Source: Naegleria gruberi (lineage: Eukaryota). Taken from it: a stretch of DNA of 64,000 nt. Positions 6,328-38,806 of the stretch are shown here, piece by piece. The notes below the pieces were generated by a model, which saw nothing but the letters and a program-made list of their open reading frames with translations, ran no database searches and was not told the origin of the DNA. The DNA lies in the NCBI GenBank assembly GCA_000004985.1, contig GG738911.1; one strand, 5' to 3'. Within the stretch, counting starts at the first letter, position 1. Each line of letters opens with the position of its first letter. The translations under genes and the position numbers were made by a program.

Positions 6328-6401
6328 TGCCTCCCTTGGGAATCGAACCCAAGACCTCTGTCTTACTAGGACAGCGCTACTGCCAACTGAGCTAGGAAGG
6401 C
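6328..6401 (-). tRNA. tRNA-Thr (anticodon AGT)
   Basis: Minus-strand read GCCTTCCTAGCTCAGTTGGCAGTAGCGCTGTCCTAGTAAGACAGAGGTCTTGGGTTCGATTCCCAAGGGAGGCA. Anticodon stem CTGTC/GACAG, loop CTAGTAA. T-arm TTGGG/TTCGATT/CCCAA. Acceptor 7 bp with one G-U. T-run downstream. Confidence 0.85.
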
Positions 6402-19972: not shown

Positions 19973-22309
19973 ATGACAACAGACAGCCATCATCACTCGC
20001 TTCTCATACGACAATACATCTTTCTATCCTCCATTCTTCTTCTCCTTTTCGTCTTTTCACAAGTTTCGTCTCAAGATTATTACATTTCGAATACGGGATT
20101 TTTAGCTCCACAACCAGATGGAATAACATACAATGCAGGGAGTTTATATGTAGCCCTGAATGCTACCAATAGAATAGTCAAGTTTGACCTCACCTCGCAA
20201 CAAGTTTCGTATATTGCTGGAACTGGCCAGGAAGGTTTCGGTGGAGAAAACGAAATTGCGACCGAATCTCCTCTCCGAGCTCCATCAATTGCAAAACTGG
20301 CCTCTGATGGTACCATTTACATTACCGATTGTTCAAATGATAGAATTAGAAAGATTGTTGCTGGCAATGTTTCGACTCTAGTTTCGTCTATTTCATTGAG
20401 TCGACCTTTCGGATTAGATATTCATCCAATAAGTGGTGATTTGTACATTTCAGAATTAACTTCACGAATTGTCAAATTGACACCAAGTTCTGGAATAGCA
20501 GAAGCTTTGACTTTGAATGGAAATGGTTACAATGGAGATCAAATTCTAGCAATTTCTGCCAATGTCAACAATCCATTGCATATCCACGTGAAAAGTAATG
20601 GAGAATATTACTTTTTGGATTATGGAAATAATGCTATTCGAAAGGTGGATCTAAATGGATATATTTCTACAATAGTTTTGGGTGCATTTACTGCTATTGG
20701 TGGCGATCCTTTAATTAGTAATGAATTTTATTATGGAGGAGTTGGACAAATTTTCAAATATTCGAATGGATCATCTGTTCTAATTGCTGGTGGAGGAGTT
20801 TTGGATGTGGATGATGTTGATGCTAAAACTGTAATGTTTGGCCAAGTTTTTGGAATTACTTTGGGAGTGAGTGGTGAGGTTTACTTTTCAGATTATGGAA
20901 ATGGAAGAATTAGAAAGTTGGTGACATGTAGTGCAGGAACTTCCTATTCTGGCTATACTCATTCGTGTGTTTCTTGTTTTGGAGCAAGTGGTGCAGGGGC
21001 ATGTTCTGGAAATGGTGTTTGCATTAATAATGATGTTTGCGCATGTACTGTTTCAGGTTTTAGTGGAACTTATTGCAATGTTTCCGTTACTACTTGTTTT
21101 AACATTACAAGCGATCAGCCAACTACTTGTTCAGGTCATGGATCTTGCGTTTCTTTGAATAATTGTTCGTGTCTTTCTGGATATGATGCAATCGATTGCT
21201 CTGTCAACATTTCACCATTTGCAATGAGTACCAGTATTTCTTCAACCTCAGTTTCAGACTCTTCAGCAATTGGCATTCAAGCAATTTACTCTTCAGATGT
21301 TAATCCAACTTATTTCATTTGGGCTTGTACGAATTGTATCTATAAGGATTCGAATAATCAATTGCAATTTAGCAATATATCAAATACTGCCATTATTGAT
21401 GGTTCATTACTCAGTGTAGGAACTTATTCATTTACTGTTTATGGTATTTATGATAATGGACCTTCGTATCCAGCCAGAGTTTCGAATGTTGCCAATTTCC
21501 AAATCACAGTAATCAAATCAGTATTTTCTTCATCTTCGTTGGAGATTTATGGATTGCCATCGGTTGTGGTGGCTACAAACGCATCAAGCTCTCTCAACAT
21601 TATCATTCCACGACTTTCTCTCGATCAAACTCTCATTAATCAATTCTTGTCATGCAGTAACAGCTCAACAACATGTGGATTGTTAATTTCCTACAATGCT
21701 GCTCTGTCAATTACCAAGAACTCAATTACCTCCGTCATTTCAAGTTACAACGGTTACACCATGGCCAGTACAAATTTCATGAATAATACCATCACCTTTA
21801 CTCCATCTTTGAATTTTAAGGATAGTAATGCATATTCTGGCACTGAAATGATTCTCAATTTGGAGCTTACTGGTGCCACCAATTTGACCTTCTCTACTTC
21901 AGTACCAATTTATTCTTCAGCCACTCCACCACAAAGTACATCTGCAAATTCGACAGGTGGCGTGTTGGTTGATGTTTTGGGAATAGTGTCTCCATCATCA
22001 GGTAGAGCCCTCTCTGATCTTTTCACAATTACTTTTTCATCATGGACTGCAGCAGCTCAATTATTACCTTTGAAATATTCTGTTGGATTTGTAGATCCTG
22101 TTACTTCGAATGTGGTGAGAGTTACCGATTATACAGAGACCACTTCAGCTAATTTCATTCTTCCTTATCTTTCTTCGGTTTCTAATAGTAGAGGCCTTTT
22201 AGCTACTAGCTCGGTATCTGTAGTTGTTTTTGTGAATGATTCTATGGGAAATCAATATTCAAGTACTGTTCTCCCTATGCAGGAACAACGACAGAGTTGG
22301 TTTCTCTAA
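19973..22309 (+). CDS. adhesion-GPCR-like protein, ectodomain segment: signal peptide, NHL-type beta-propeller repeats, EGF-like repeats, S/T-rich region
   Basis: Signal peptide 'MTTDSHHHSLLIRQYIFLSSILLLLFVFSQVSSQ'. Repeats of the form 'YIAGTGQEGFGGE...DGTIYITDCSNDRIRKI'. EGF-like 'CSGNGVCINNDVCACTVSGFSGTYC', 'CSGHGSCVSLNNCSCLSGYDAIDC'. Confidence 0.75.
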   Translation: MTTDSHHHSLLIRQYIFLSSILLLLFVFSQVSSQDYYISNTGFLAPQPDGITYNAGSLYVALNATNRIVKFDLTSQQVSYIAGTGQEGFGGENEIATESPLRAPSIAKLASDGTIYITDCSNDRIRKIVAGNVSTLVSSISLSRPFGLDIHPISGDLYISELTSRIVKLTPSSGIAEALTLNGNGYNGDQILAISANVNNPLHIHVKSNGEYYFLDYGNNAIRKVDLNGYISTIVLGAFTAIGGDPLISNEFYYGGVGQIFKYSNGSSVLIAGGGVLDVDDVDAKTVMFGQVFGITLGVSGEVYFSDYGNGRIRKLVTCSAGTSYSGYTHSCVSCFGASGAGACSGNGVCINNDVCACTVSGFSGTYCNVSVTTCFNITSDQPTTCSGHGSCVSLNNCSCLSGYDAIDCSVNISPFAMSTSISSTSVSDSSAIGIQAIYSSDVNPTYFIWACTNCIYKDSNNQLQFSNISNTAIIDGSLLSVGTYSFTVYGIYDNGPSYPARVSNVANFQITVIKSVFSSSSLEIYGLPSVVVATNASSSLNIIIPRLSLDQTLINQFLSCSNSSTTCGLLISYNAALSITKNSITSVISSYNGYTMASTNFMNNTITFTPSLNFKDSNAYSGTEMILNLELTGATNLTFSTSVPIYSSATPPQSTSANSTGGVLVDVLGIVSPSSGRALSDLFTITFSSWTAAAQLLPLKYSVGFVDPVTSNVVRVTDYTETTSANFILPYLSSVSNSRGLLATSSVSVVVFVNDSMGNQYSSTVLPMQEQRQSWFL

Positions 22310-24927
22310 TCGGTTCATATGCCAGCTCTTCTCTTCTCACTGTTTTCAGTTATGACACCTCTCTTTCCGCTGCCAATTCTACTTCCTCAAGTGATGTTGC
22401 ATTGGAAATTGTGAAGAGTGTAGTAATTGATCCAAAGAATCCTACCACAGCTCTCACAGCCATTCAACAAGCTACCTCAAATCCAGAGGCTGTCGATTCT
22501 CGTGTCATTACTGAATTAACTAACAAGATTAATAATTTTGTAGCAACTCTCAATACTAATTACAAAGAAGAGAGAGCTCTTTATGGATTTGTCAAATCTA
22601 AATTGGCAACTGCTGACACAACAAGAACAACAGAAATTATTTCAAATGTTTTGGCAAGTGGAAGAGGAAATCAACAATCTAAGGGAATGGCAGATAATTT
22701 GACCAATTTATTAATTTTGGGAGAAATTGCCACATTATTAACTGGTCAGGATCAATCATCAGATGTTAACGAGTTGACCAAAGTTTCCTTCACATCTTCT
22801 CAATTGGATATTGCTGTTGCCGTCTTTACTTTGGATAAAGAAATGAATGGAACCAATCAAATGATTGGAGGTGATAATTCTGTAACCATGCCATTGTCAC
22901 AAATCACGAAACAATACAATGGATTCTCTAAAGAATCTGCCACTACCATGATCACCTATGATCAAAATATTTACTCTCAATCCAATGTTAGCGTCCTAAC
23001 TTCAACAGTGACTGATTTTAAATATTATCAAAATCAACAAGTTGTAACATTGGAGAATTTATCACAAAATATTGAACTCAAATTCAAAATTACAAATTCT
23101 ACAATTGTAATGGAAAAGATTATGGAATATATCAATAGTACAACTCAATTCAATTCAACCTCAAACAGCACCCAATCCAATTCTACTCTAGTGATGGCTT
23201 GCAAATATTGGGATGAATCTGCACTTGCTTGGAGCAGTAGAGGATGCTATCTGAAAGGATACAATTTGACAAGTCAAGAAATTCTCTGTTCTTGTTCTCA
23301 CACGACAATGTTCACAACCTTTGTGGAACAAAACACTTCGACAATTCCTGCTTCAGTGAAGGAAACAGTTGCTGCCTTTTATTATGGTCAAATTGCGTTG
23401 GGAATTTTCTATTTCTTGACTTCCATTGTCATTCTTTGTTTGTTGATTATTTTCAAGAATGAACAACCAATTTCATCTCGTTTGATTACTCCATACTTGG
23501 GAATGATTGCATTGATTGTGGAATCTCTTCTCGTTTACATTACACAAAGAGGTATTTTAGTGAGACAGTTGACTTCTACTTCAACTCAAATGTGGGAATC
23601 TGGAGATACTGATGCCAACACAATTGCAAACATTGTTCTCATATTTGCGAATACCATTAATTTGACAGCCATTTTATCTTATGTCATGCAAGTGTTGAGA
23701 TTCCAAGTTATGAAATACTTGTACGATTTATTGGCCTCCAGTAGAAATAATGAAAAGAAGAGCGATAGAATTTTGACAGTTTTGAGATTCTTGACATCTT
23801 CCTCATTGTTTTCCGCTATTTTAATTGTATTTGCAGTTATTAATGTATGCTATTGGGTCTTGTGGGTTGTTTTGAGAAGAACTGGAGTCCTTCCACCAGC
23901 AACATACACCTACATTGTTTCCATTTCGTATACGGTTATCATTTTCACATTTGGTGTCATTATTACATTGGTAGCAATCTTTGACTGGGTTGGATCTTCA
24001 GCCAAAGCAGGAATCAAAGCCAAGAGAAACTCCTCACTCACCAGAGAATCCAAATTCAAAATTGAAGAAGAAATTCAGAAGGAAATGGAAAAGTTTGATA
24101 TTTTCGAAAAGATTTACACAATTCTAGTAGGAATTGATGAACCATTGTATTTCAGAACTGAAATGATTATTTATGTGATTAGTTTCGTATTTTTAATCTT
24201 AAATCAAGTTATTGGATTGGTAGGAAATGAACTTAGATATGGAAATGAAGCCTCGTACAAGAAGGCGCTAATATTCGACTCCATTTCATTTATTTTCGAA
24301 GTTCTCTACGTGTTTACCTATTTATTTGTCTTTGGAGGATACTCTCTCATTCTATTACTCATTAGCAAGGTGAAAACATACAGAAATAACAAGGAAATGA
24401 AAAAATCTGCCAAGAAAAACATCAGCCAAGGTAGAGAAATCAACGAGGACATGTCACTTGTCTTTTCCAGCGATGAAGCCACTGAATTATTCGCCAGTTT
24501 CTGCGTTAAGGAATTCTCCTCTGAAAACTTTTATCTCTACTCAGATTTGAAAGAAAATACAGACATTATCGAAGGTAATAACATGCGAAAATTGCATCCA
24601 TATCTTCACTACATTCACGACACGTATGTGAAAGATGGCGCCAACTATCAAGTGAATATTCCAAACAAGTGCAGAACTAGTTTTATGAATCTGTTCAACA
24701 AGTATGCGAATGAGGTTTTGGAAATGTTGGATTCACAACTCAGTGAAAAGATCTCAACGGAAATAAGGAGTAGTTTTGAAATTCTAGTTCAGCAAATATT
24801 TGTCAATTTGGGAGATACCTTTTCAAGATTTGTATTTACTGTGGAATTTAAGGTTTTTAAGAAAGCATATGAACTTAGACAGGATATTTTGGAGGAATCT
24901 AATGTTGTTTTAATTGATGATGAGTAA
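22297..24927 (+). CDS. adhesion-GPCR-like protein, GAIN/GPS + 7TM + C-terminal RGS-domain segment, frame-shifted -1 from the previous ORF
   Basis: GPS motif 'CKYWDESALAWSSRGCYLKGYNLTSQEILCSCSHTTMFTTF'. Seven hydrophobic helices. RGS domain 'ELFASFCVKEFSSENFYLYSDLKE...QVNIPNKCRTSFMNLF...DTFSRFVFTVEFKVF'. This frame is open from 22240, so the break lies within 22240-22307. Confidence 0.75.
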   Translation: MVSLIGSYASSSLLTVFSYDTSLSAANSTSSSDVALEIVKSVVIDPKNPTTALTAIQQATSNPEAVDSRVITELTNKINNFVATLNTNYKEERALYGFVKSKLATADTTRTTEIISNVLASGRGNQQSKGMADNLTNLLILGEIATLLTGQDQSSDVNELTKVSFTSSQLDIAVAVFTLDKEMNGTNQMIGGDNSVTMPLSQITKQYNGFSKESATTMITYDQNIYSQSNVSVLTSTVTDFKYYQNQQVVTLENLSQNIELKFKITNSTIVMEKIMEYINSTTQFNSTSNSTQSNSTLVMACKYWDESALAWSSRGCYLKGYNLTSQEILCSCSHTTMFTTFVEQNTSTIPASVKETVAAFYYGQIALGIFYFLTSIVILCLLIIFKNEQPISSRLITPYLGMIALIVESLLVYITQRGILVRQLTSTSTQMWESGDTDANTIANIVLIFANTINLTAILSYVMQVLRFQVMKYLYDLLASSRNNEKKSDRILTVLRFLTSSSLFSAILIVFAVINVCYWVLWVVLRRTGVLPPATYTYIVSISYTVIIFTFGVIITLVAIFDWVGSSAKAGIKAKRNSSLTRESKFKIEEEIQKEMEKFDIFEKIYTILVGIDEPLYFRTEMIIYVISFVFLILNQVIGLVGNELRYGNEASYKKALIFDSISFIFEVLYVFTYLFVFGGYSLILLLISKVKTYRNNKEMKKSAKKNISQGREINEDMSLVFSSDEATELFASFCVKEFSSENFYLYSDLKENTDIIEGNNMRKLHPYLHYIHDTYVKDGANYQVNIPNKCRTSFMNLFNKYANEVLEMLDSQLSEKISTEIRSSFEILVQQIFVNLGDTFSRFVFTVEFKVFKKAYELRQDILEESNVVLIDDE

Positions 24928-24953: not shown

Positions 24954-25955
24954 TTAGTCATGTTTATTGGCTATTTCGATTGGATTTTCTTCAAGTGGTT
25001 GGGAAGAAAGTTCATTGCGAATAGTTTCGTCTTCATTTACTTTACTTTCGTCTTCGCTGGTTTCCGTAGTTTCTTTGGATTCTTCTTGTGTTGCTTTTTC
25101 AGGAGAGTTTTCCACATTTTCTTGTTCGTTCTCTTCCCTTGTTTCTTCCCTATTATCTGAGCTTTCAATTTCAACATTCGAATTTTCCATTTTGGCTAAT
25201 ATTAAAGTTTCATGGTATGAATTTCGATTATCAGGATCTAATTCCTTTACTTTCGAATGATCATGAACTGCCTTTTCATTTTGATTCAACTTTTGGAAAG
25301 CAAATCCTCTATAATAAAAAGCATGAACATTATTCGAATCTAATTCAATAACATCGGACAAATCTTGCACTGATTTTTCATTCTCTTCTAACAATGCATA
25401 GAATTTACCTCTCTTTTCCAGAGAAACCTTGAACAGGTCATCATTTTCATTCGAAAGTTCAATAACTCTTGTCAAATCAGAAATGGCATCTGAAAGATTA
25501 TCCAAAATTCGGTTCGTAAGTCCTCTATGAAACAGAGCTTGAACATGATCAGGCTCTTTCTCAATAAAAACGTTCAAATCATCGAGAGCTTCATTTTCCT
25601 TTCGAATTCTAATTCTGGAAATTCCTCGATATAGAAATACCATATCTGTTCCACCAAATTCGATAACTTTAGAAAAATCAGAATCTGCCTTCTTAAAATC
25701 CTCAATTTTGAAAAGATTCAATCCTCTATACAAGTAAGCATCCAGAAAAGTTTCGTCTAATTCAATAACTTTCGAATAATCATCAATTGCTTTCTTTCTA
25801 TCAAGTAGACATCCGAAAGCAGTCGCTCTTTGATAATAATTCATTGCATTTTCTTCCAGTTCAATAACTTTGGTAAAATATTCTACAGCTTTCGAATAAT
25901 CTTGCTCATTAAAAAACTTTCGTCCACTTTCTTTCAACGATTGAATGTTTTCCAT
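24954..25955 (-). CDS. TPR-repeat protein with acidic C-terminal tail
   Basis: 333 aa with ATG. About 7 TPR-like units, e.g. 'YSKAVEYFTKVIELEENAMNYYQRATAF...KAIDDYSKVIELD'. E/S-rich tail. Confidence 0.8.
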   Translation of the reverse strand: MENIQSLKESGRKFFNEQDYSKAVEYFTKVIELEENAMNYYQRATAFGCLLDRKKAIDDYSKVIELDETFLDAYLYRGLNLFKIEDFKKADSDFSKVIEFGGTDMVFLYRGISRIRIRKENEALDDLNVFIEKEPDHVQALFHRGLTNRILDNLSDAISDLTRVIELSNENDDLFKVSLEKRGKFYALLEENEKSVQDLSDVIELDSNNVHAFYYRGFAFQKLNQNEKAVHDHSKVKELDPDNRNSYHETLILAKMENSNVEIESSDNREETREENEQENVENSPEKATQEESKETTETSEDESKVNEDETIRNELSSQPLEENPIEIANKHD

Positions 25956-26276: not shown

Positions 26277-27041
26277 ATGACTTTAACTCATACAAATCAA
26301 CCAAGTTATGGAGCAACTCAATACGGACAACAACCACAATATATGCCTCCACAAGGTTATCCACAACAACCACAATATGCACAACAACCGCAAATGGGAT
26401 ATCAACAACCAATGATGGCTCAAACAACAGTCATTTCAACTCCATCCAATTTACAACAATATCCAAATGGTGGACCTGTTATGGAGACAATTATTGACAC
26501 ACGAATTTCTTCTGGTACTTTCCTCTCTTTGAATTTATCACCACAACTCTTGTCGAACACTTTGGGAGCTTATGGTTTTCCAAATGCTGCCAATGCTCCA
26601 GCCGATATTGAAAATAACATTATTAGACCAATCAATAATTTATTCACTCAATTCTACAACAAATCATCCAATTATGATACCTACTACATGATCTCGTTTA
26701 TTATCTTGATGATTTTAATCATTTTAACAGCTGGTTTGGGTGTAGTATTCATTTTCATCATCTTCGTCTTCCCATATTTGAAGAATAGACACATTTCATC
26801 CTTCAATGAAACTACTCAGATTCAAGTGAGAAACCTTTTACAAAAGGAAAATCAAAACAAGTATATGCCACACGGTTTGGAATGGGTTATTCTCTATGAA
26901 GTGAAACCAGGAACTAGTTCTCTCTTTACTGGTTTCACCTGTATGCAAGAAGCCAGTTTGAAACTCATTCGTGTCAGTAGACAAGTCCCAACTGTCACTA
27001 CAACTGTCACACAACAACAAGACACTTTGGTAATGAACTAA
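26277..27041 (+). CDS. single-TM protein with Q/P/Y-rich N-terminus; member 1 of a three-paralogue family
   Basis: 254 aa. Motifs 'YPNGGPVMETI', 'DIENNIIRPINNLFTQFY', TM 'YYMISFIILMILIILTAGLGVVFIFIIFVFPYL', and 'LLQKENQNKYMPHGLEWVILY'. The same motifs occur in 31559..32609 and 32724..33743. Confidence 0.6.
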   Translation: MTLTHTNQPSYGATQYGQQPQYMPPQGYPQQPQYAQQPQMGYQQPMMAQTTVISTPSNLQQYPNGGPVMETIIDTRISSGTFLSLNLSPQLLSNTLGAYGFPNAANAPADIENNIIRPINNLFTQFYNKSSNYDTYYMISFIILMILIILTAGLGVVFIFIIFVFPYLKNRHISSFNETTQIQVRNLLQKENQNKYMPHGLEWVILYEVKPGTSSLFTGFTCMQEASLKLIRVSRQVPTVTTTVTQQQDTLVMN

Positions 27042-27182
27042 AATTGTAAATATGTATTAAATAATTTATTTATTCCTAGTAGATTTCCTAGATTCTTTTA
27101 GATCAATTCGATTCTCAGTTAAAATTATAAATAATAATTTATAATAATTTATAATATCAATTATCAATTATCATTAATTTGA

Positions 27183-27800
27183 TTAAAATTGATAATTATT
27201 ACGATTAATAGATTGCATCAATTTAGGTTTCACAATCATATCAATAATAATCATCATGACCATCCAAATATCACTCTTTCCAATAAAATTCAACCAAGTA
27301 ATAGTTGAAGAATATTCATTCGAAAAATCCAGCACCGAATTAAATTCCTTCTCACCCTGTGCAGTCTCCATATATAATGCTCTATGAACAAGTACTCCAA
27401 TCATGATCTTTTCCATCAAACTCGACAAGACGAAAAGTCCAAACAAGAGATTGACCCAGAGTGCTCTCTTATCAAATCTCCAAAATAATTTAACAAAGGC
27501 CACAACTATAAACAAGGCTACTCCTTGATACATCATATGATGATACCTTCCTTCTTCTCCCATTTGATGAAGTAAACTCCAAACCTTCTCCGATGACATC
27601 CATCCCCATCCAAATCTCGTTCCCAACGTTAAATGTATCCACGATGATTCATATATTTGTACATAATGATAGAAAGCATATGGAAGGGAGAGAATTAAAC
27701 CAAGAAACCAATAAAACAAGGAATTGGATCTTAAATTGGTTAAAATTGATTTCTTATTGTTGGATTTTACATATCCACTTGATGATGATGATGATGACAT
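27183..27800 (-). CDS. multi-pass membrane protein (3-4 TM), unassigned family
   Basis: ATG at 27800; the tool ORF starts at TTG 27860. TM segments 'LFYWFLGLILSLPYAFYHYV', 'VALFIVVAFVKLFW', 'LWVNLLFGLFVLSSLMEKIMIGVLV'. Confidence 0.5.
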   Translation of the reverse strand: MSSSSSSSGYVKSNNKKSILTNLRSNSLFYWFLGLILSLPYAFYHYVQIYESSWIHLTLGTRFGWGWMSSEKVWSLLHQMGEEGRYHHMMYQGVALFIVVAFVKLFWRFDKRALWVNLLFGLFVLSSLMEKIMIGVLVHRALYMETAQGEKEFNSVLDFSNEYSSTITWLNFIGKSDIWMVMMIIIDMIVKPKLMQSINRNNYQF

Positions 27801-27918
27801 AGTCGAGAATAATTTATTGGATGATGCAAAAGTTGAAGTGGAAGGCAAGGTTGTCGGCAACGTTTGTAATTCGAATATTTTTTAAAAATAATAATAAAAT
27901 ATTATTTTTCATTCCGTG

Positions 27919-29607
27919 ATGAAAATCAAATTAGGAAAGGGGAATAATTTCCATCATTTCAAAGAAAAAAAAAAGCGCCAACTAAGCAAATTATTTGCTT
28001 TGAAAAAGTCGGCTAAAAGAATTGATAATATACTCATAGTAGATTTGTTGAATCCAATCATCATGATCAGTTTATTTATTGCTGCCTTGTTCGGATCAAA
28101 TAGCAGAAATTTAGATAAAACTTCCAATCAACAATTATTTGGCTATGAACAACAACAACCAGTAAATCATCATCATCCTCCTCATCAACAACAACAGCCT
28201 CCACAACAACCACAACAACAATATTATGTAAATAATCCGCAGCCTCTACCACCAAATTATCAACCTTCAATTCCGCCACCCAATCATAGAAATTCAATCA
28301 TTAGTAATAATAATATTAATAATAATAATAATTATCATCTACAACAACAACCAGTAAATCAACAACCTCCTTCTTCTACCTCTAATTCTTTCAAAGTTAA
28401 TAATAATAATTATCCTAATGTAATAACATATCCGCCACAACAGCAACAAGCAAATACTACCAATGGTTATCCACAATCACAAATTGTAGATCACAATCAA
28501 CAACAACAACAACCTTTCTGTCCTCCTACACACCATGATCCAAATTATAATGCAATTTCTTTGGAAAGACCTAATTTACAACCTATTGATACAGATAGTA
28601 AACCATCAGCTCCTACGGAATCATTTTGTAATGGAAAACCTTCTCTCAATGAAACAATTAATGGAAATTTGAATTTTGTACCAACATTTAATGAGCATTA
28701 CCAAATTCCACCACAACAAGAATCAATTCAATTTCAACAAAATCAACAAACAATTACTCCTCCACCTCAACAAACTCAGCCAACCATGCAAACTATCAAC
28801 ATGAATATTGCAGGTATTCCACTAACTTTGCAAAAACCACTAGCTCAACCAACAGGACAACCAAACGCTCAACCTGTTACAATGAATGCTACTGTTTCTG
28901 GAGGAAATTTCAATGGTTTTGGACTTCAACCATCCAATAATGTCGACATTACAAAACCATTTACTCCAATTTCTAACACACAAATCATTTCAACAACACC
29001 AGGATTTGGACAAACATTGTGTTATCAACAAGGATATAATAATGGAATTAGAGTTAATCAGAGAGTAGTTCAAACAGGTGATCAATGGTCAACTGAACAT
29101 GAATACGGAACTTATAATGTTTGTTTTAGAATTTCACCAAAATCAGGAGAACATGCCAATAATCCATTTAGTGGACTCGTTCTAGGAGTTACTGGTATTG
29201 CAAATCATAAACCTCCTGCAGGCCATACTCACTTTATCGTATTCAACAATGTACAGCAACGAATTGAAAAGAGAGCATATCCTAATGATTGTCGCCCAGC
29301 AATAGCCGGAGCCAGATACATGCTCATGGAAAGTGTTGCCATTCCTTATAATCTAATTGCATCCTTTGAGGTTGATTGTGTTGGAGGAAGAGTCAATAAG
29401 CAAAGTCTTTCATGTGTAATTTGCATGCTAACAAATGGACATTCAATCAGAATCAACCAAGACGAAATGGATACAGTCTCATTGTCAGCAGAGAAGGCCA
29501 AATGGTTGTATCAGGCTCTGAATTATAGTCTAGCCATGTTAAAACACAAACAACAGCAACAACAAAATAATACTATACTCTCTCAAGACAATATTCAAAA
29601 TATTTAA
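27919..29607 (+). CDS. Q/N/P-rich (prion-like) protein with a ~200-aa C-terminal globular domain
   Basis: ATG at 27919; the tool ORF starts at GTG 27916. Hydrophobic 'IIMISLFIAALFG' near the N-terminus. Long CAA/AAT tracts. Non-repetitive C-terminus 'GIRVNQRVVQTGDQWSTEHEYGTYNVCFRISPKSGEHANNPFSGLVLGVTGIANHKPP...'. Confidence 0.5.
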   Translation: MKIKLGKGNNFHHFKEKKKRQLSKLFALKKSAKRIDNILIVDLLNPIIMISLFIAALFGSNSRNLDKTSNQQLFGYEQQQPVNHHHPPHQQQQPPQQPQQQYYVNNPQPLPPNYQPSIPPPNHRNSIISNNNINNNNNYHLQQQPVNQQPPSSTSNSFKVNNNNYPNVITYPPQQQQANTTNGYPQSQIVDHNQQQQQPFCPPTHHDPNYNAISLERPNLQPIDTDSKPSAPTESFCNGKPSLNETINGNLNFVPTFNEHYQIPPQQESIQFQQNQQTITPPPQQTQPTMQTINMNIAGIPLTLQKPLAQPTGQPNAQPVTMNATVSGGNFNGFGLQPSNNVDITKPFTPISNTQIISTTPGFGQTLCYQQGYNNGIRVNQRVVQTGDQWSTEHEYGTYNVCFRISPKSGEHANNPFSGLVLGVTGIANHKPPAGHTHFIVFNNVQQRIEKRAYPNDCRPAIAGARYMLMESVAIPYNLIASFEVDCVGGRVNKQSLSCVICMLTNGHSIRINQDEMDTVSLSAEKAKWLYQALNYSLAMLKHKQQQQQNNTILSQDNIQNI

Positions 29608-29748
29608 TTCTTTATTCTTTTGAATAAAGGAAATTTTCTGTAATGTGGAGACAGTCTAAATACTCATAGTTGAACATAAGACTTTGAGATATTTTTGTAA
29701 TGAGTTCAACCTGATGTAAACAGTTAAGAAGAAAGAAAACAAAAAAAA

Positions 29749-29892
29749 ATGTCTGGTGATCAACTCAATGCCGAGTTTGAAACTGCCTGTAGGAGAGGAA
29801 ATTTAAATGGTTTTCTAACAATAATGAATATTATTTCCAATCAAGAAGATAGATTTACCTTGATTAACACACCAGTTTTTAGAAATTTTTCT
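29749..29892 (+). CDS. small ankyrin-repeat protein, exon 1
   Basis: Starts 'MSGDQLNAEFETACRRGNLNGFLTIMNIISNQEDRFTLINTP...'. Donor TCT|GTAGGT at 29893. An alternative donor CCA|GTTTTT at 29875 is also in frame. Confidence 0.55.
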
Positions 29893-29938
29893 GTAGGTTT
29901 TGAAAATTAAAATTAGGATCGGAATTGACCATTGACAG

Positions 29939-30040
29939 CCACCACCAATGTATACAGTTTGGAATGGACACTTTTCAATGTTTTCCTATTTGATAGATCA
30001 TAATTTGGTAAATTTTGAAATGACTGATGAAACTGGAAAT
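29939..30040 (+). CDS. small ankyrin-repeat protein, exon 2
   Basis: Acceptor ttgacag|CC. Encodes 'PPPMYTVWNGHFSMFSYLIDHNLVNFEMTDETGN', an ANK consensus. Donor AAT|GTGAGT at 30041. Confidence 0.6.
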
Positions 30041-30095
30041 GTGAGTTTTTAAGAATTGAATTAGAGAAATGAAATGTTTCGAAAATACTTAATAG

Positions 30096-30350
30096 ACATA
30101 TCTGCATATTGCTGCATTGAAAGGAGATTTGAATTTCATTAACAAGCTACTCAATTTAGATGAAGCTGATGTTCTTGTTAATAAGAAAGATTTTGTGGGA
30201 AAAACTGCTTTCGAATTGGCAGAACAACGAAACCGAATGGACATTGCAACCATGATTCGTTCCATCAAATATTCAAAGAAACTCCATACAGCTTTATTTA
30301 ACCAATTTTCAAAAGGAAATTTATCAGATATTCAATTTATTGTGGAATAA
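30096..30350 (+). CDS. small ankyrin-repeat protein, exon 3 (intron 30041..30095, 55 nt)
   Basis: Acceptor aatag|ACA. Encodes 'TYLHIAALKGDLNFINKLLNLDEADVLVNKKDFVGKTAFELAEQRNRMDIATMI...', in frame with tool ORF 30117..30350. Confidence 0.65.
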   Translation, partial: TYLHIAALKGDLNFINKLLNLDEADVLVNKKDFVGKTAFELAEQRNRMDIATMIRSIKYSKKLHTALFNQFSKGNLSDIQFIVE

Positions 30351-30911
30351 TTTTTATGGAAATTAGGATTTTGAAAATAAATCGAGAGTAAATTTACATC
30401 AATTAAGAGGATTTCCTGCATTGGTGGTAAGTTTCATCAACTATACATCACAAACAAGAGGATTTTCAAAAATTAGCAAAAATTATTGAAACCACTTTTG
30501 ATCTCCAAAAATTCTAAAAATGAAATTCCCAATTCTCAATCCAATTAATCTTGTCCGATGATATGATTCCTCATCAGACAAATTTAATTTCTGGAGACTA
30601 TCAATTCGTTTACACAAATTATGGAAAGTCATATGATAACAAGGAGTCTGATGTTTATGTCTTTGTGAAACGACCAAAATTCAAATTTTCATTCGAAACT
30701 TGTTATGATATTCATCAAATTTATTTTCTACATGTCGAATATGGGAATTATTTCGAAACTAGTTTCTATTTTTCAAACTTAACGCGTATGATAAGAAAAT
30801 TTTGATTTGGACTCATAAGAAATAAACAATACTTTCTGCCAATGAGCACCAACACAACACAATTAAGCAAAATCTTGAATTAATTATGTCCTCGTTTCTC
30901 CTTAATGTGAA

Positions 30912-30992
30912 GCAGGGGTTCCCGAGTGGTCAAAGGGGGTAGACTCAAGTTCTACTGCGCAAGCTTCGTGGGTTCAAATCCCACCTTCTGCA
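30912..30992 (+). tRNA. tRNA-Leu (anticodon CAA), type II with long variable arm
   Basis: GCAGGGGTTCCCGAGTGGTCAAAGGGGGTAGACTCAAGTTCTACTGCGCAAGCTTCGTGGGTTCAAATCCCACCTTCTGCA. Anticodon stem GTAGA/TCTAC, loop CTCAAGT. T-arm GTGGG/TTCAAAT/CCCAC. The decoded codon UUG matches the most used Leu codon in this window. Confidence 0.85.
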
Positions 30993-30993
30993 G

Positions 30994-31011
30994 TTTTGCT
31001 TTTAATTTTTT
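30994..31011 (+). terminator. pol III T-run terminator downstream of tRNA-Leu
   Basis: Sequence ttttgcttttaatttttt immediately 3' of the tRNA. Confidence 0.4.
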
Positions 31012-31338
31012 ACCTTAATGAGTTAATATAATTTTTGAATTAAAATATCTTGAATATAATGTCTACTAGATACCTCGAAAAGATGGAATTTTCTTTTCAA
31101 ATGTTCAAAGAGTAAATCAACAATGATGACATGGTCCTCTCCATGCCAAGCTAAAAATATCAGTAAAAAGTTTAATAATTCTTTCGACTTGTTACATACC
31201 ATAATAGGATTGTTCTTTAACTGTTCCTTTATCATTGATTGTTCGAGTTGAACTTCAAGTTTAAATGTTAATAAATAAAGCTAAAATCTATTAGCAAATG
31301 TATATGCCATTTGTATTATCTTAAGGTAATGGATGTAA

Positions 31339-31411
31339 GGGGACTTGGCGCAGTCGGTAGCGCGTAGGTCTCATAATCCTAAGGTCGTGAGTTCGATCCT
31401 CACAGTCCCCA
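31339..31411 (+). tRNA. tRNA-Met elongator (anticodon CAT)
   Basis: GGGGACTTGGCGCAGTCGGTAGCGCGTAGGTCTCATAATCCTAAGGTCGTGAGTTCGATCCTCACAGTCCCCA. G1:C72 and a TTCGATC T-loop mark it as elongator, not initiator. T-run follows. Confidence 0.85.
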
Positions 31412-31558
31412 AGATTTTGCTCTTTTGAAAATCCTTATTCATTCCTACTCCAATATCACCTTGTTGCCTTAAAAAAAATTTAACAATAAAAAATTACCAG
31501 GCTCAAAGTAGCTGCTACTTGGGCGATTCACAAATAACCAATTACTTTTAAATTTAGC

Positions 31559-31810
31559 ATGCTGATGATGAATTCCTCATCACCCACTACTTCCTCACAA
31601 CTCGTAGTAGATGATCATGAGGGATCGACACCAAATTCCAGCACTGAAATTAACTTCCTCTCACCTACCACTCTCTCGGATGGTCCATTTACTTCATCTA
31701 CATTAACTTCCCCAACAAATTCTCTATCTATTCTTTCCAGTCAGCAACTAACTTCACAACAATTAATTGCCTCATCAAATTCTTCAACCTCTGATCAACA
31801 ACATATCTGA
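31559..31810 (+). CDS. family member 2, S/T-rich N-terminal segment (frame 1)
   Basis: ATG at 31559, 'MLMMNSSSPTTSSQLVVDDHEGSTPNSSTEINFLSPTTLSDGPFTSSTLTSPTN...'. Overlaps the next ORF by 44 nt in the +1 frame. Confidence 0.5.
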   Translation: MLMMNSSSPTTSSQLVVDDHEGSTPNSSTEINFLSPTTLSDGPFTSSTLTSPTNSLSILSSQQLTSQQLIASSNSSTSDQQHI

Positions 31811-32609
31811 GAGACTTCCCAGAACAAGTTTTATAGCTCAACGAAAGGAAGAATCAGAGAGACCATATGTTCTCTCTCCACACTCAACAGTGTTGATTCA
31901 TGAATATCCGAATGGTCCTATCAGGGAGAAATTAGTTGAAATGGTTTATTCTCCATTGGATACTCAACAATATTTGAGATTTGCTGGTGGGAGAGCAATT
32001 GAGAATATGAAGGGAACTCTACGACATTATGGATATTCGAGGGATATGCATTCGATTGTGGAAGATGTGGAAACTAATTTAGTATTTCCATTAAATAGAA
32101 TATTGGAGAGACATCAATTGATTAGTTCTCACTATGAAATGTATTTTAAAATGTTGCTAAATTCATTAATATTTATTGCAATCATTACTTTGGGATGTGG
32201 ATTGGTGTTCTTTCCATGTTTGTTACTAATTCAATATTTACATTGGAAACATGTGAAAAATTATGATAAGAATGTGAAAGAGAGAATCCACAGAATTTTA
32301 GAAAGAGAAAATAAGAAGTATCTTCCTTATGGTTTCGAATGGATTATCAAATATAGCATAATCAATTCTGACAAGAAGAGGACATGTGTAGGAATAAGGA
32401 CAGAATTGGCATGTGTCCAAGAGGTTGTTCTTTCGCTCATCCATGTTCGATCTAATCCCTTCTCTTCCAAAATAGGGTCACCTCCATTGTCAAGTTTCAG
32501 CTCTGTAATTTCATCTTCTTCAAGCATTGTGAAGGAAACACCATCGTCAATTAATGGAAATCCTGCTCTTTCAGAAGAAACCACTCCTTCAACAAGTAAT
32601 CAACTTTAA
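31767..32609 (+). CDS. family member 2, main segment (conserved motifs plus TM); no in-frame ATG before the conserved region
   Basis: Motifs 'EYPNGPIREKLVEMV', 'DVETNLVFPLNRILERH', TM 'YFKMLLNSLIFIAIITLGCGLVFFPCLLLIQYL', 'ILERENKKYLPYGFEWIIKY'. The first in-frame ATG lies downstream of 'YPNGPIRE', so the N-terminus must come from the 31559 frame. Confidence 0.6.
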   Translation: MPHQILQPLINNISERLPRTSFIAQRKEESERPYVLSPHSTVLIHEYPNGPIREKLVEMVYSPLDTQQYLRFAGGRAIENMKGTLRHYGYSRDMHSIVEDVETNLVFPLNRILERHQLISSHYEMYFKMLLNSLIFIAIITLGCGLVFFPCLLLIQYLHWKHVKNYDKNVKERIHRILERENKKYLPYGFEWIIKYSIINSDKKRTCVGIRTELACVQEVVLSLIHVRSNPFSSKIGSPPLSSFSSVISSSSSIVKETPSSINGNPALSEETTPSTSNQL

Positions 32610-32723
32610 ACTTAATTCAAACATGTATTATATATCTCTTTGAAAAAAAAGCAATTGCTTGCTACAGGATTGTACTGTATCATGAATTCCCTCCAATAAA
32701 TCTTTCTAAGAAATAATGAACGA

Positions 32724-33743
32724 ATGGTCGTATCCAAATATGGCAAATTACTTTCCATTCAAGATTGCAGCAATCCAACAAACGGCGCGCTCATTAATTA
32801 TCAAACAATAAAAAAAACCACCACAACCTCCATCCCAAGAGGATTGCATCCCTACTACTCCTCGTTATCCTCATATTGTTGGATTCTCTTCAACTTGCTA
32901 ACCTCCTCAACCACCCTTAATAACAGTAGAGCACAGAAACGTAAAATGCAGCAGAGGTCTTCATCAATATATTGTGTAAATTCAGTCTCAGTGATCTCTC
33001 CACAAACTACTAATCAGACAAATAATCAGAGTTTCAGATCTCCATCGCGGAATGTTTATAAAACTTCGTCATCTTCTTCTCCCTCAGTAAATCCACATCG
33101 ACACGAATCAACAATTCGAATACCAAAACCATCCTATGTGGTCGTTCAGCAACAGGATACGACCACCACAATTTTAACCGAGTCTCAATTTCCCAATGAT
33201 GGTCCTAAAGTGGAAGTTTTATTGCAAACGAAAATTGGAATGAAAGGTCCTAATTTTTCGATTAGTAATTCTGGGTCATTGATTGGGTGTTTGGAACAGT
33301 GTGGAATGTCAAATTCGATAGAAATGGTGACGGATATTGAGTCTTCTATTTTAAAACCTTTAAATTCTCTATTTTTGGAATACTATGCCAAATTTAGAAA
33401 ATATGAAATGCTGTATTTAATAATGATACTTGTAGCAGTAGGAATTATAATCATGACAATGGGATTAGGCCTTGCCTTTGCTTTAATAATATTCATCCCA
33501 AAAATTTTGAAAAATCGACAATTTGCCAATTTTGGAAAAATTAAAGAAAAAATTCGACTACTTTTAGAAAGAGAAAATCAAACCAAATATTTACCCTACC
33601 ACATGGAATGGGTTATTCAATACGGAATTTCTCCTCCAGAAAACAATCCAGACGATCAAACACTCGATGGAAGATGCATCCAAAATGCTACTTTACAATT
33701 ATTAAGAGTTAAAATCGAATCAGAATTGGAAGAAATTATTTAA
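32724..33743 (+). CDS. family member 3 (single TM, S/T-rich N-terminus)
   Basis: 339 aa. Motifs 'FPNDGPKVEVLL', 'DIESSILKPLNSLFLEYY', TM 'LYLIMILVAVGIIIMTMGLGLAFALIIFIP', 'LLERENQTKYLPYHMEWVIQY'. Confidence 0.6.
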   Translation: MVVSKYGKLLSIQDCSNPTNGALINYQTIKKTTTTSIPRGLHPYYSSLSSYCWILFNLLTSSTTLNNSRAQKRKMQQRSSSIYCVNSVSVISPQTTNQTNNQSFRSPSRNVYKTSSSSSPSVNPHRHESTIRIPKPSYVVVQQQDTTTTILTESQFPNDGPKVEVLLQTKIGMKGPNFSISNSGSLIGCLEQCGMSNSIEMVTDIESSILKPLNSLFLEYYAKFRKYEMLYLIMILVAVGIIIMTMGLGLAFALIIFIPKILKNRQFANFGKIKEKIRLLLERENQTKYLPYHMEWVIQYGISPPENNPDDQTLDGRCIQNATLQLLRVKIESELEEII

Positions 33744-33843: not shown

Positions 33844-35439
33844 ATGGAATCACCTCTGAAAAAGAAGAAACTCAATCACGCTGCGGAAGAAAAAGAGAAA
33901 AATATTGATTCCGATGATGATGATCAGAATAATGATGAAAATGTAAAAATAATATTATCTAATGATGATGGTTTAATGGAAAGTATTCTATTGAAGAAGA
34001 AACTTGGAGGAAACAAAATTAGAACTCTCAATACAAAGATCACACTCTCCGAGGTTTCTATTGATTGTCTTGCAAATGATGATGTGCAGATTCGAATATG
34101 TCACCAGAAAAAGTTATTGTTTCTTAGTTGTTGCAAAAATATTCACATTTACAATTATGAGGAAGATTTGAAACTTGTTAGGAAAATTAATGTGAAATTT
34201 GATAGTTTTGAAGTCGATAGTGTTGGTGAACACTTGTTTGTAATCTCAATTAGTGGCATGTCAAAATATAGACTTGATGACATGTCAGAATTGTGGACTT
34301 TTAGAGAAAACGTGTATTGTTTTACTATTAGTGAATCCAGAAATGAAATTTTCATTCCCAATAATTTGGAAGTTAACGTTTTGGATATGAATGATGGCTC
34401 AGTCAAGAGGAAAATTCCATTTCAATTAAGCCAAGGTTATTGCGCAGATATTGTCTATGATGAAGAGGAGGAAACCATTTATCTATCAGTTAATGTTGAT
34501 AGTTTTGAAGTTTATGACTTCAAATTATTAATAGTTTCAGAAAAAACTAGAACACAAACTGAACTTGTTTGTGATCAGAGATTTAGCCATCTCTTCTTCT
34601 ATGAAAGATATCTTGTATATATCACAGTAGTGGAAGTAGTCTATCTTTTTGAAAAGAAAACTAATAATTTATTATTAACATTTAAATTGGATAAAATTAG
34701 ATATTACAATTCCTATTTTGATAGATTAACCAATACTTTAATATATCTAAATAGACAGAAAATATGTTTTAAAAAGTTACACATTGAGGAAAATATTATT
34801 GAAACTCCACTCAACAAGGAGATTTGTCTTGCACTTGAGAAATTTGGAGGCAAATTACCATCTTTCATTCCAAAAGTTCAAGTTTTAAACGAATTTGTTA
34901 TTCCAGAATGTTTACAATATCTATGGAGAGTTGAGTTTGAAAATTCAAAGTTTTGGTATATTGAGAAAGAGATTGCAAAATATGTTTCTTTTCGAGATTG
35001 TAACTTTGGATACATTACTGAAAGATGGATGGGAAAAGATGATATTCTCTTAATTGGAGATTGTCCAACAAGTTCAGAATTGGAAAATAACAAGTTTGCC
35101 CTCTGTATCTTTGTAAAGAAAGAGGAAGTTTCCAAGGTATCAAATGGCGACTTTTCAATTTATTTGCGTTACTTTGATGAATCTTCTTATGATTATATTA
35201 TTCAGAGTTTCAAATTTTCAGAATTTGTTTCAAAATTGAGTGTTGCAGAACTTGTAAAATTAGAAGACTTTTCAGAATATTTGATTCATTTTGAAAAGAN
35301 NNNNNNNNNNNNNNNNNNNNNNNNNNNNNNNNNNNNNNNNNNNNNNNNNNNNNNNNNNNNNNNNNNNNTAAGAAAGATTAACAATATACTGTTACAGATG
35401 GTTTGGCATCAAATAAAGAAAAATTGGAATGAAAATTGA
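33844..35439 (+). CDS. clustered lineage-specific family, copy 1 (interrupted by the assembly gap)
   Basis: Starts 'MESPLKKKKLNH...DENVKII...LKKKLGGNKI...FEVDSVGEHLF...LDMNDGSVKRKI...IIETPLNKEICLALEKFGGKLPSFIPKVQ...VIPECLQYLWRVEFENSKFWYIEKEI...DFSIYLRY'. These motifs are shared with 46395..48092, 48179..49867 and 49911..51740. The N-run falls in the C-terminal part, so the C-terminus is unreliable. Confidence 0.6.
   Translation: MESPLKKKKLNHAAEEKEKNIDSDDDDQNNDENVKIILSNDDGLMESILLKKKLGGNKIRTLNTKITLSEVSIDCLANDDVQIRICHQKKLLFLSCCKNIHIYNYEEDLKLVRKINVKFDSFEVDSVGEHLFVISISGMSKYRLDDMSELWTFRENVYCFTISESRNEIFIPNNLEVNVLDMNDGSVKRKIPFQLSQGYCADIVYDEEEETIYLSVNVDSFEVYDFKLLIVSEKTRTQTELVCDQRFSHLFFYERYLVYITVVEVVYLFEKKTNNLLLTFKLDKIRYYNSYFDRLTNTLIYLNRQKICFKKLHIEENIIETPLNKEICLALEKFGGKLPSFIPKVQVLNEFVIPECLQYLWRVEFENSKFWYIEKEIAKYVSFRDCNFGYITERWMGKDDILLIGDCPTSSELENNKFALCIFVKKEEVSKVSNGDFSIYLRYFDESSYDYIIQSFKFSEFVSKLSVAELVKLEDFSEYLIHFEKXXXXXXXXXXXXXXXXXXXXXXXXRKINNILLQMVWHQIKKNWNEN
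35300..35368. other. assembly gap (69 N)
   Basis: A run of n characters. This is a draft scaffold join of unknown true length. Confidence 0.95.
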
Positions 35440-38072: not shown

Positions 38073-38806
38073 AAAACTGGGTTGAAAGCAATGATACTAT
38101 CATGACTTTGGAAAAGAAGTTGGAACAAGTCTGTAATGTTATTCCAGGACAATACTCCACTCTCTGTACTTATGCTGTTGAACAATACTTGCCAACTTTC
38201 ATTCACCAAGTTGAACAACAATACTCTCCATTGGTCATTTGTCAAGATGTTAGTTTGTGCTCAAAGCAAGAAGCTCCAAAGGTTGTTGCTCCACAACCAG
38301 CTGCTGCTGAATTGTGCCCAATCTGTAAGGCTGCTGTCGGTTTCTTGAAGTCCAAGATCTCCACTGTTGATGTCCCAACCATCAAGAAGCAATTGGAATT
38401 CGCTTGTACTTTCTTCCAAGTTGAAGATTGTCAACAATTGGTTGATAAGGCTGCTGATATTGCTCAAGCCATCCAAACTGAAGATGCTAATACCATCTGT
38501 TCATCTGTTGTTGATGTCTGCCCAAAGGAACAAGTTACCTTGAAGGCTCAATGGAATCCATTCAAGAAGTTCCTCGAAGCTAAGAATGCCAAGTATTGTC
38601 CAACTTGTTTGGCCATTACCCAATATTTGGAAAATGCCATCACTTCTGATGTTGCTGTTGCTGAACTCATCAAGATTGCTGACCTCGGTTGTGCCAAGTT
38701 GGGTTCTTTGGAATCTCTCTGTACCAAGTTTGTTCCTCTTGCTGTTGACGAATTGAAGAAGTCATCCTCGAAAAGGTTACCCCACAAAAGGTCTGTTCCA
38801 CTTTGA
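38073..38806 (+). CDS. saposin-like protein, exon 3, first frame (intron 2 = 37909..38072, 164 nt)
   Basis: Acceptor aatag|AA gives 'QVENWVESNDTIMTLEKKLEQVCNVIPG...', with the 6-Cys SapB spacing repeated. The frame closes at 38806 inside the fourth SapB domain. Confidence 0.7.

Follow-up and report, generated by a model that had tools for sequence, protein, structure and literature searches.

This locus raises the question of which protein family three related genes belong to. They lie in a 64-kb stretch of the nuclear genome of the amoeba Naegleria gruberi (64,000 nt; assembly GCA_000004985.1, contig GG738911.1), called the window in the following, and all positions are counted from its first letter. 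We refer to the genes as copies 1, 2 and 3; all are encoded on the + strand, and the G+C content of the window is ~33% throughout. A previous sequence-only reading had recognized the three genes as paralogues but could assign no family, a view that is superseded here. We suggest, with a probability of about 0.7, that they are paralogues in a far-diverged branch of the Erf4/GOLGA7 family (GCP16, Pfam PF10256), the accessory subunit of DHHC enzymes. On this view, they belong to a known family in divergent form and do not constitute a system of a new kind. Erf4/GOLGA7 proteins are the non-catalytic partners of Erf2/zDHHC9-type protein S-acyltransferases, which are Ras-type palmitoyltransferases. 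Paralogy, a restricted distribution, a predicted hairpin fold and similarity to GCP16/Erf4 in sequence and fold form the basis present in this analysis, from which we infer the topology and function of copies 1–3.

Copy 1 (26277..27041) is a complete single-exon gene for 254 amino acids, in which a Q/P/Y-rich N-terminus precedes the Erf4-like module. It equals the N. gruberi “predicted protein” P0001 of NCBI (100% identity over 254 amino acids) and is therefore not a piece of a larger gene. The open reading frame (ORF) of copy 2 (31767..32609) has 280 codons after an upstream stop, and the ORF of copy 3 (32724..33743) encodes 339 amino acids from its first ATG, with an alternative start at Met75 (32946). 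Compared pairwise by tblastn within the window, copies 1 and 3 matched with an E-value of 2.7e-34 (38% identity over 189 amino acids), copies 1 and 2 with 4.9e-21, and copies 2 and 3 with 9.7e-20. Searching the whole 64 kb with each copy yielded matches between the three copies at E-values from 1e-18 to 1e-34 and no fourth copy at E ≤ 1. In a MAFFT alignment, the three proteins are collinear over ~190 residues, with 27–37% identity and 36 invariant columns. This similarity is far beyond chance, and copies 1–3 constitute a real three-member paralogous family. The ORFs lie at the coordinates proposed earlier, on the + strand; the motif similarity survives alignment, and no copy turns out to be part of an unrelated longer gene.

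As the sequence-only reading had described, the N-termini are variable and of low complexity, and the same ordered motifs surround one hydrophobic segment in all three copies, collinear in the alignment. The first motif follows the low-complexity N-terminus and reads YPNGGP in copy 1, YPNGP in copy 2 (31905-31919) and FPNDGP in copy 3 (33189-33206); in copy 1 it forms, with the predicted strand beta1 and the next loop, the stretch VMETIIDTRISSGT (26460..26519). The second, on the helix before the hydrophobic segment, is DIENNIIRPINNLFTQFY in copy 1 (26604..26657), DVETNLVFPLNRILERH in copy 2 and DIESSILKPLNSLFLEYY in copy 3. The hydrophobic segment itself comprises 34 uncharged residues in copy 1 (26679..26780), with the turn TAGLG at 26727-26741. 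It lies at 32139-32240 in copy 2 (turn TLGCG, 32187-32201) and at 33408-33500 in copy 3 (turn TMGLG, 33456-33470), and is predicted to form a monotopic helical hairpin. The motif behind the hairpin reads LLQKENQNKYMPHGLEWVILY in copy 1, ILERENKKYLPYGFEWIIKY in copy 2 (32295-32354) and LLERENQTKYLPYHMEWVIQY in copy 3 (33561-33623). In copy 1, the entire post-hairpin module (26835..26975) consists of this motif, which covers the end of the return helix and strand beta2, followed by a loop and SLKLIRV as strand beta3.

To delineate the family, we searched 1.84 billion representative proteins exhaustively with a HMMER profile of the conserved region (A2) and obtained only 11 relatives at E ≤ 1e-3. 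These are P0003 (copy 2), P0004 and P0007 from N. gruberi, P0005 and P0009 from N. lovaniensis, P0016 from N. fowleri, P0012 from Willaertia magna, P0002 from a sequencing-run assembly (60% identical to copy 1) and P0006, P0010 and P0011 from environmental contigs. The taxonomic distribution is restricted: all relatives with a named source belong to Naegleria or Willaertia, and all carry the label “hypothetical” or “predicted” protein. A word-indexed homologue search with copy 1 or with a 4-sequence profile returned P0001–P0003 only, a metagenome scan with the alignment of the environmental clade found nothing, and exact look-ups of P0002 and P0007 matched no contigs.

A neighbour-joining tree divides the 13 members into two clades. 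The YPNGGP clade comprises copies 1–3, P0002, P0004, P0005 and P0016, and clade A comprises P0006, P0007, P0009, P0010, P0011 and P0012. The YPNGGP clade is represented in N. gruberi by at least four genes, three of them in the window, compared with one shown in each of N. lovaniensis and N. fowleri; with the clade-A gene P0007, the family in N. gruberi rises to at least five. Synteny exists between the locus of P0005 in N. lovaniensis and that of P0016 in N. fowleri, which share a protoglobin gene, an ORF of ~950 amino acids and a GST gene; neither locus is syntenic with the N. gruberi window or has tandem copies. Both genes (P0005, L001 10001-10925; P0016, L002 10001-10948) are longer than their coding sequence. 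For P0005, tblastn located a ~170-nt intron inside the hydrophobic hairpin, and for P0016 an intron is suggested by the gene length alone. In the window copies of N. gruberi, the conserved module is free of introns.

The relationship to Erf4/GOLGA7 is most readily seen in the Willaertia protein P0012. In its native form, it matches the Pfam Erf4 model with an E-value of 7.6e-6 (26.3 bits) over positions 5-106 of 116, and its precomputed annotation in the protein collection reads “Erf4 (weak)”. BLASTP aligned it with human GOLGA7 at E 1e-4, collinear from residues 39-129 against 37-110, and the clade-A consensus matched Pfam Erf4 with E 0.0026. When the hidden Markov model (HMM) of the family was run against GOLGA7, its reverse and 5,000 shuffles, the real GOLGA7 ranked 2nd of 5,002. 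A profile-profile comparison by hhalign found the local match YIQEQNEKIYAPQGL to LLQKENQNKYMPHGLE (P 0.001), with a probability of only 13–21% over 29 columns. The upper value came from a GOLGA7 profile (A4) built on a homologue search with human GOLGA7, which yielded vertebrate GOLGA7 only (68–100% identity); this profile was too shallow and missed even yeast Erf4 in the PDB. P0012 found nothing among PDB sequences.

In a joint MAFFT alignment, the family and GOLGA7 are collinear over all four blocks and across the whole of GOLGA7. In the family members, the hairpin is larger by ~24 residues and the beta2-beta3 loop is longer, and these insertions hide the relationship. We excised the columns absent from GOLGA7 and rescanned the trimmed proteins. 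Erf4 was then matched at E < 0.01 by seven of the 13 members and at E ≤ 0.14 by nine, always over positions ~20-105 of the 116 in the HMM, and it was the top or only Pfam family for the members that matched. The E-values were 1.9e-5 for copy 1 (25.1 bits), 4e-5 for P0016, 1.2e-4 for P0012, 5.2e-4 for P0002, 8.1e-4 for P0005, 1.7e-3 for P0007, 8.9e-3 for P0004, 0.11 for P0010 and 0.14 for P0009. Reversed sequences that went through the same alignment and trimming gave Erf4 in none of seven cases. On these sequence comparisons, we consider homology to Erf4/GOLGA7 very likely.

We further modeled residues 50-238 of copy 1 with AlphaFold2 (AF2) and number the residues within this 189-residue segment. 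The models reached a predicted local distance difference test score (pLDDT) of 74 and a predicted template modeling score (pTM) of 0.68 with 4 sequences, and 79 and 0.70 with 13 sequences, and both agree in their layout of beta1, helices, hairpin, beta2 and beta3. Directly after YPNGGP follows strand beta1 (19-28), then a short helix (40-49) and a 47-residue helix (55-101, or to 102) that carries the motif DIE..I..PLN.LF..Y. A turn with the invariant T-x-G-x-G (102-106) leads into a 44-residue return helix (107-150, or from 106), which ends in LLE+ENQ.KY. Strand beta2 (152-162; P.G.EWVI.Y), a loop and strand beta3 (173-185; L.LIRV) complete the module, and the N-terminal strand is placed beside these two C-terminal strands. 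The models therefore show the order of elements of the PF10256 fold, beta1', alpha1', alpha2'/alpha3', alpha4', beta2' and beta3', a fold whose strands lie in one cytosolic sheet.

The hydrophobic segment counts 31–37 uncharged residues in 12 of the 13 members and ~30 in copy 2, compared with 15 residues in GOLGA7. Its center holds a conserved (P)T-x-G-L-G/S turn, which reads P-T-x-G-L-S in clade A, and around this Thr/Gly (+Pro) turn the two arms measure ~13–16 residues. Such arms are too short to span the bilayer separately. By these features, the segment is predicted to be a monotopic helical hairpin rather than a single-pass helix of 20–25 residues, and copies 1–3 probably sit in the membrane by this built-in hydrophobic hairpin.

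How closely does this architecture follow that of the known accessory subunits? GOLGA7/GCP16 (PDB 8HF3 chain B), the accessory subunit of ZDHHC9/14/18/5/8, has the same order of elements: beta1, alpha1', an inserted helix pair, alpha4', beta2 and beta3. Here, YPNGGP and the next strand, including VMETIIDTRISSGT of copy 1, correspond to GOLGA7 residues 2-22, which form beta1' and the RDYS loop, and P-x3-P-V...SSGT is shared. The motif DIE..I..PLN.LF..Y, with DIENNIIRPINNLFTQFY in copy 1, corresponds to alpha1' (IDRQQFEETVRTLNNLY), with L-N-x-L-Y/F in common; its Asn71 (numbered in the 189-residue copy 1 segment, alignment A3) is shared by all family members and by GOLGA7, where it aligns with Asn51. 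The hydrophobic segment takes the place of the membrane-inserted alpha2'/alpha3', GOLGA7 residues 61-82 (PMC13499115), helices that lie in the membrane beside the transmembrane (TM) helices of the zDHHC enzyme (PMC13499115, PMC12528901). LLE(R/K)ENQ.KYLPYG.EWVI.Y matches the last part of alpha4' together with beta2' (YIQEQNEKIYAPQGLLL), and the shared pattern is (I/L)-Q/E-x-x-N-x-x-x-Y-x-P-x-G-L. Within it, every family member has Asn143 (same numbering and alignment), the counterpart of Asn101 in GOLGA7, and Y-x-P-x-G-L is common to both. L.LIRV corresponds to LRVIEI in beta3', sharing L-(R/K)-(V/L)-I, and most members have K or R at the position of Arg121, a residue of GCP16 that contacts zDHHC9 (PMC13499115). 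The copy 1 post-hairpin module as a whole aligns with GOLGA7 YIQEQNEKIYAPQGLL ... GLRVIEI. Accordingly, the alpha4'/beta2' block and the L-N-x-L-Y block of alpha1' are conserved in the family.

In other respects the two differ. In the membrane part, GOLGA7 has ~15–20 amphipathic residues and the present family 31–37 fully hydrophobic ones; the family also differs in its longer beta2-beta3 loop and in added low-complexity extensions of 50–150 amino acids, and identity is only ~15%. Yeast Erf4/Shr5 (PDB 8HFC chain B), the Erf2 partner needed for Ras2 palmitoylation, belongs to the same Pfam family as GCP16 and is, like the Naegleria proteins, larger than GCP16 and equipped with extra segments, but its structural score was much weaker than that of GCP16. 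It is a peripheral membrane protein without a long hydrophobic hairpin. Hairpins of caveolin, the oleosin “proline knot” and stomatin-type anchors consist of ~30 or more hydrophobic residues with central Pro/Gly breakers and have both termini in the cytosol; they resemble the (P)T-x-G-L-G/S segment in the mode of anchoring only, with no relationship in sequence or fold. Selenoprotein K, an integral-membrane cofactor of zDHHC6, is a single-pass protein and binds via the SH3 domain of zDHHC6. In function it parallels a DHHC cofactor with an intrinsic anchor, while in fold and family it is unrelated to the Naegleria proteins.

A hairpin would bring both conserved flanks to one side of the membrane and, by homology, this would be the cytosolic side, as both flanks of the membrane-inserted part of GCP16 are cytosolic (PMC12528901, PMC13499115). 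The sequence-only reading had suggested a different topology (N-in/C-out), in which a single-pass protein keeps its low-complexity N-terminus in the cytosol and exposes a short C-terminal module with N-glycans on the exoplasmic side. There is indeed one hydrophobic segment, and the sequons NET (copy 1) and NQT (copy 3) that follow it do exist. N-x-T occurs at this column, the invariant Asn of the post-hairpin motif, in only 5 of the 13 members, and sequons are found before the segment as well, with none in copy 2. Since this Asn also aligns with the cytosolic Asn101 of GOLGA7, the sequons are not evidence of an exoplasmic module, and the idea of a glycosylated ectodomain is unsupported. K and R residues are more numerous after the segment (2–7) than before it (1–3) which, by the positive-inside rule, argues against an exoplasmic C-terminus. 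The length of the segment and its conserved central Pro/Thr/Gly turn do not fit a single TM helix either, and both AF2 models fold it back as helix-turn-helix, leaving the two flanks on the same side with the N-terminal strand beside the C-terminal ones. Together with the cytosolic location of the homologous GCP16 module (PMC13499115), this renders the single-pass topology highly improbable. A tail-anchor reading was dropped, the hydrophobic segment being internal, as was the reading of the Q/P/Y-rich N-terminus as a PPxY/Nedd4 adaptor, there being no strict PPxY motif.

Several observations weigh against the assignment to Erf4/GOLGA7 or against a function with DHHC enzymes. Native window proteins gave no Erf4 match in Pfam, only sub-threshold TM noise (LapA_dom, Vpu, Peptidase_M56), and standard annotation assigns them no family. 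After trimming, copies 2 and 3, P0006 and P0011 still lacked an Erf4 match. The Pfam gathering score of 29.3 bits was reached by no member, neither native (at best 26.3) nor trimmed (at best 25.1), and the trimming, guided by the alignment to GOLGA7, involves some circularity that is controlled by the reversed sequences only. Foldseek against the PDB returned nothing at E ≤ 0.001, and a search of PDB sequences with the family profile brought up neither GCP16 nor anything else relevant. No DHHC gene was detected among the window ORFs of ≥150 amino acids up to 53.9 kb, a scan that did not include the ORFs beyond or the tetratricopeptide repeat (TPR) ORF at 24954-25955. At the level of residues, the RDYS motif, which in GCP16 forms the loop after beta1' that contacts the zinc fingers of zDHHC (PMC12528901), is degenerate in the window copies, reading TRIS, MVYS and TKIG in copies 1, 2 and 3; clade A lacks the Asp but retains R-Y or R-F (ESRYQ, ETRFQ), and the SSGT that follows is kept in copy 1. 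Cys69/Cys72, the S-acylated pair in the membrane-inserted helices of GCP16, and Tyr76 beside them (PMC13499115) are not conserved either: the hydrophobic segment has no conserved Cys, and the Tyr76 column is occupied by Gly or another hydrophobic residue.

With every sequence link below the gathering score, Foldseek negative and the low hhalign probability, one might regard the likeness to Erf4/GOLGA7 as convergent or spurious and the proteins as an orphan family of Naegleria and Willaertia, a coiled-coil hairpin with a hydrophobic tip. We consider this improbable, because independent lines single out the same family from 24,736 Pfam models and 48,164 PDB chains, the nine matching members hit the same HMM region and the reversed controls none, and all elements occur in collinear order. 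Alternatively, the proteins may descend from Erf4 and have taken up a new function as monotopic hairpin proteins without DHHC pairing, maybe as scaffolds of membrane domains or organelles that are recruited via their tails. Above all, such a change would concern the derived YPNGGP clade. Its window copies have not conserved the features that mediate zDHHC binding and regulation in GCP16, namely the RDYS loop, Tyr76 and Cys69/Cys72 (PMC12528901, PMC13499115). The clade is also separate from the more Erf4-like clade A and expanded in N. gruberi only, and a protein with a built-in anchor no longer depends on palmitoylation. Yet the best-conserved blocks are those of the GCP16 platform, namely alpha1', the end of alpha4' with beta2, beta3 and the K/R at the Arg121 position. 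Trimmed copy 1 still matches Erf4, and nothing positive points to another function, so that we judge such a change of function unlikely.

On the Erf4/GOLGA7 assignment, by analogy with GCP16, copies 1–3 would most likely act as accessory subunits of one or more Naegleria S-acyltransferases of the Erf2/zDHHC9 type. As a monotopic anchor, the hairpin would dip into the cytosolic leaflet beside the TM helices of the enzyme, and the cytosolic platform of helices and sheet would clamp the DHHC zinc-finger domain and the C-terminal polyproline segment, as in GCP16. In this way the enzyme and its acyl-intermediate would be stabilized and the enzyme activated, as by Erf4 and GCP16. The long, fully hydrophobic hairpin would stand in for the short Cys-rich amphipathic helices of the animal and yeast members, which depend on palmitoylation, and anchoring of the cofactor would then be independent of its own palmitoylation. 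The added Q/P/Y- or S/T-rich low-complexity tails and the expansion in N. gruberi may diversify partners or localization. A more specific version, in which the Naegleria and Willaertia proteins preserve or have reinvented an integral-membrane DHHC accessory subunit with a self-inserting hairpin replacing palmitoylation-dependent anchoring, appears decidedly doubtful to us. If it were true, Erf4-type cofactors need not be substrates of their own enzyme, and the YPNGGP-clade genes of N. gruberi (at least four, with differing tails) could target DHHC enzymes in a paralogue-specific way or act independently of DHHC.

The assignment would extend the Erf4/GOLGA7 cofactor to Discoba, in a form missed by the Pfam thresholds, and would give a family and a testable function to “hypothetical” proteins of Naegleria and Willaertia, among them P0016 of the pathogen N. 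fowleri. Literature searches for Naegleria with Erf4/GOLGA7, or with DHHC and palmitoyltransferase, gave nothing relevant. A hairpin in place of palmitoylated amphipathic helices would also be a natural experiment on the role of the membrane-inserted part of GCP16.

Two errors in the N. gruberi reference annotation became apparent, copy 3 missing and copy 2 truncated at its 5' end. The copy 3 protein is absent from an index of 5.8 billion proteins and, in an exhaustive search, from the 50%-identity representatives, although none of the members found exceeds 39% identity to copy 3. By exact look-up, neither a protein nor a contig was obtained, and searches of NCBI, UniRef and the remaining collections likewise gave no such protein. 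Given its intact ORF of 339 codons, copy 3 is apparently a gene of N. gruberi that has escaped annotation.

For copy 2, the NCBI model (P0003; 222 amino acids) begins with MVYSPL at an internal Met (31941) and leaves out the conserved YPNGP/beta1 part. In tblastn, the likeness to copies 1 and 3 runs upstream of this Met through YPNGP, there is no in-frame ATG upstream of YPNGP, and a TAA just before 31767 closes the frame. These features of the reading frame indicate that the model is 5'-truncated and that the true 5' end would come from an upstream exon or a frameshift. The candidate 5' exon is an S/T-rich ORF with an ATG at 31559..31810 (+ strand), in a frame other than that of copy 2, to which an intron or a frameshift must connect it. 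An enumeration of introns yielded 14 different in-frame GT..AG introns that could link the two.

Between copies 1 and 2 lie further genes: a 225-amino-acid multi-TM protein is encoded at 27183-27860 (- strand) and a 563-amino-acid Q/P/N-rich protein at 27916-29607 (+ strand), both without a Pfam family and unrelated to copies 1–3, followed by tRNA-Leu(CAA) at 30912-30992 and tRNA-Met(CAT) at 31339-31411, both on the + strand. Additional tRNA genes are located at 6328 (Thr), 12683 (Glu) and 46271 (Ile). An assembly gap of 69 N (35300-35368) interrupts the ORF at 33844-35439. Elsewhere in the window, a 1127-amino-acid protein (9274-12657, + strand) contains a weak adenylate/guanylate cyclase catalytic domain (E 4.7e-5). 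The ORF at 19973-22309 encodes teneurin-type NHL and EGF domains, and the ORF at 22297-24927 a GPS motif, a multi-TM region and a C-terminal RGS domain; both are on the + strand and overlap by 13 nt in different frames. The ORFs within 19973-24927 may together represent one receptor resembling an adhesion G protein-coupled receptor (GPCR) with its own RGS domain. Finally, a 234-amino-acid protein with saposin-B type domains (SapB_1, SapB_2) is encoded at 38102-38806 (+ strand) and may be the precursor of a naegleriapore-like pore-forming protein.

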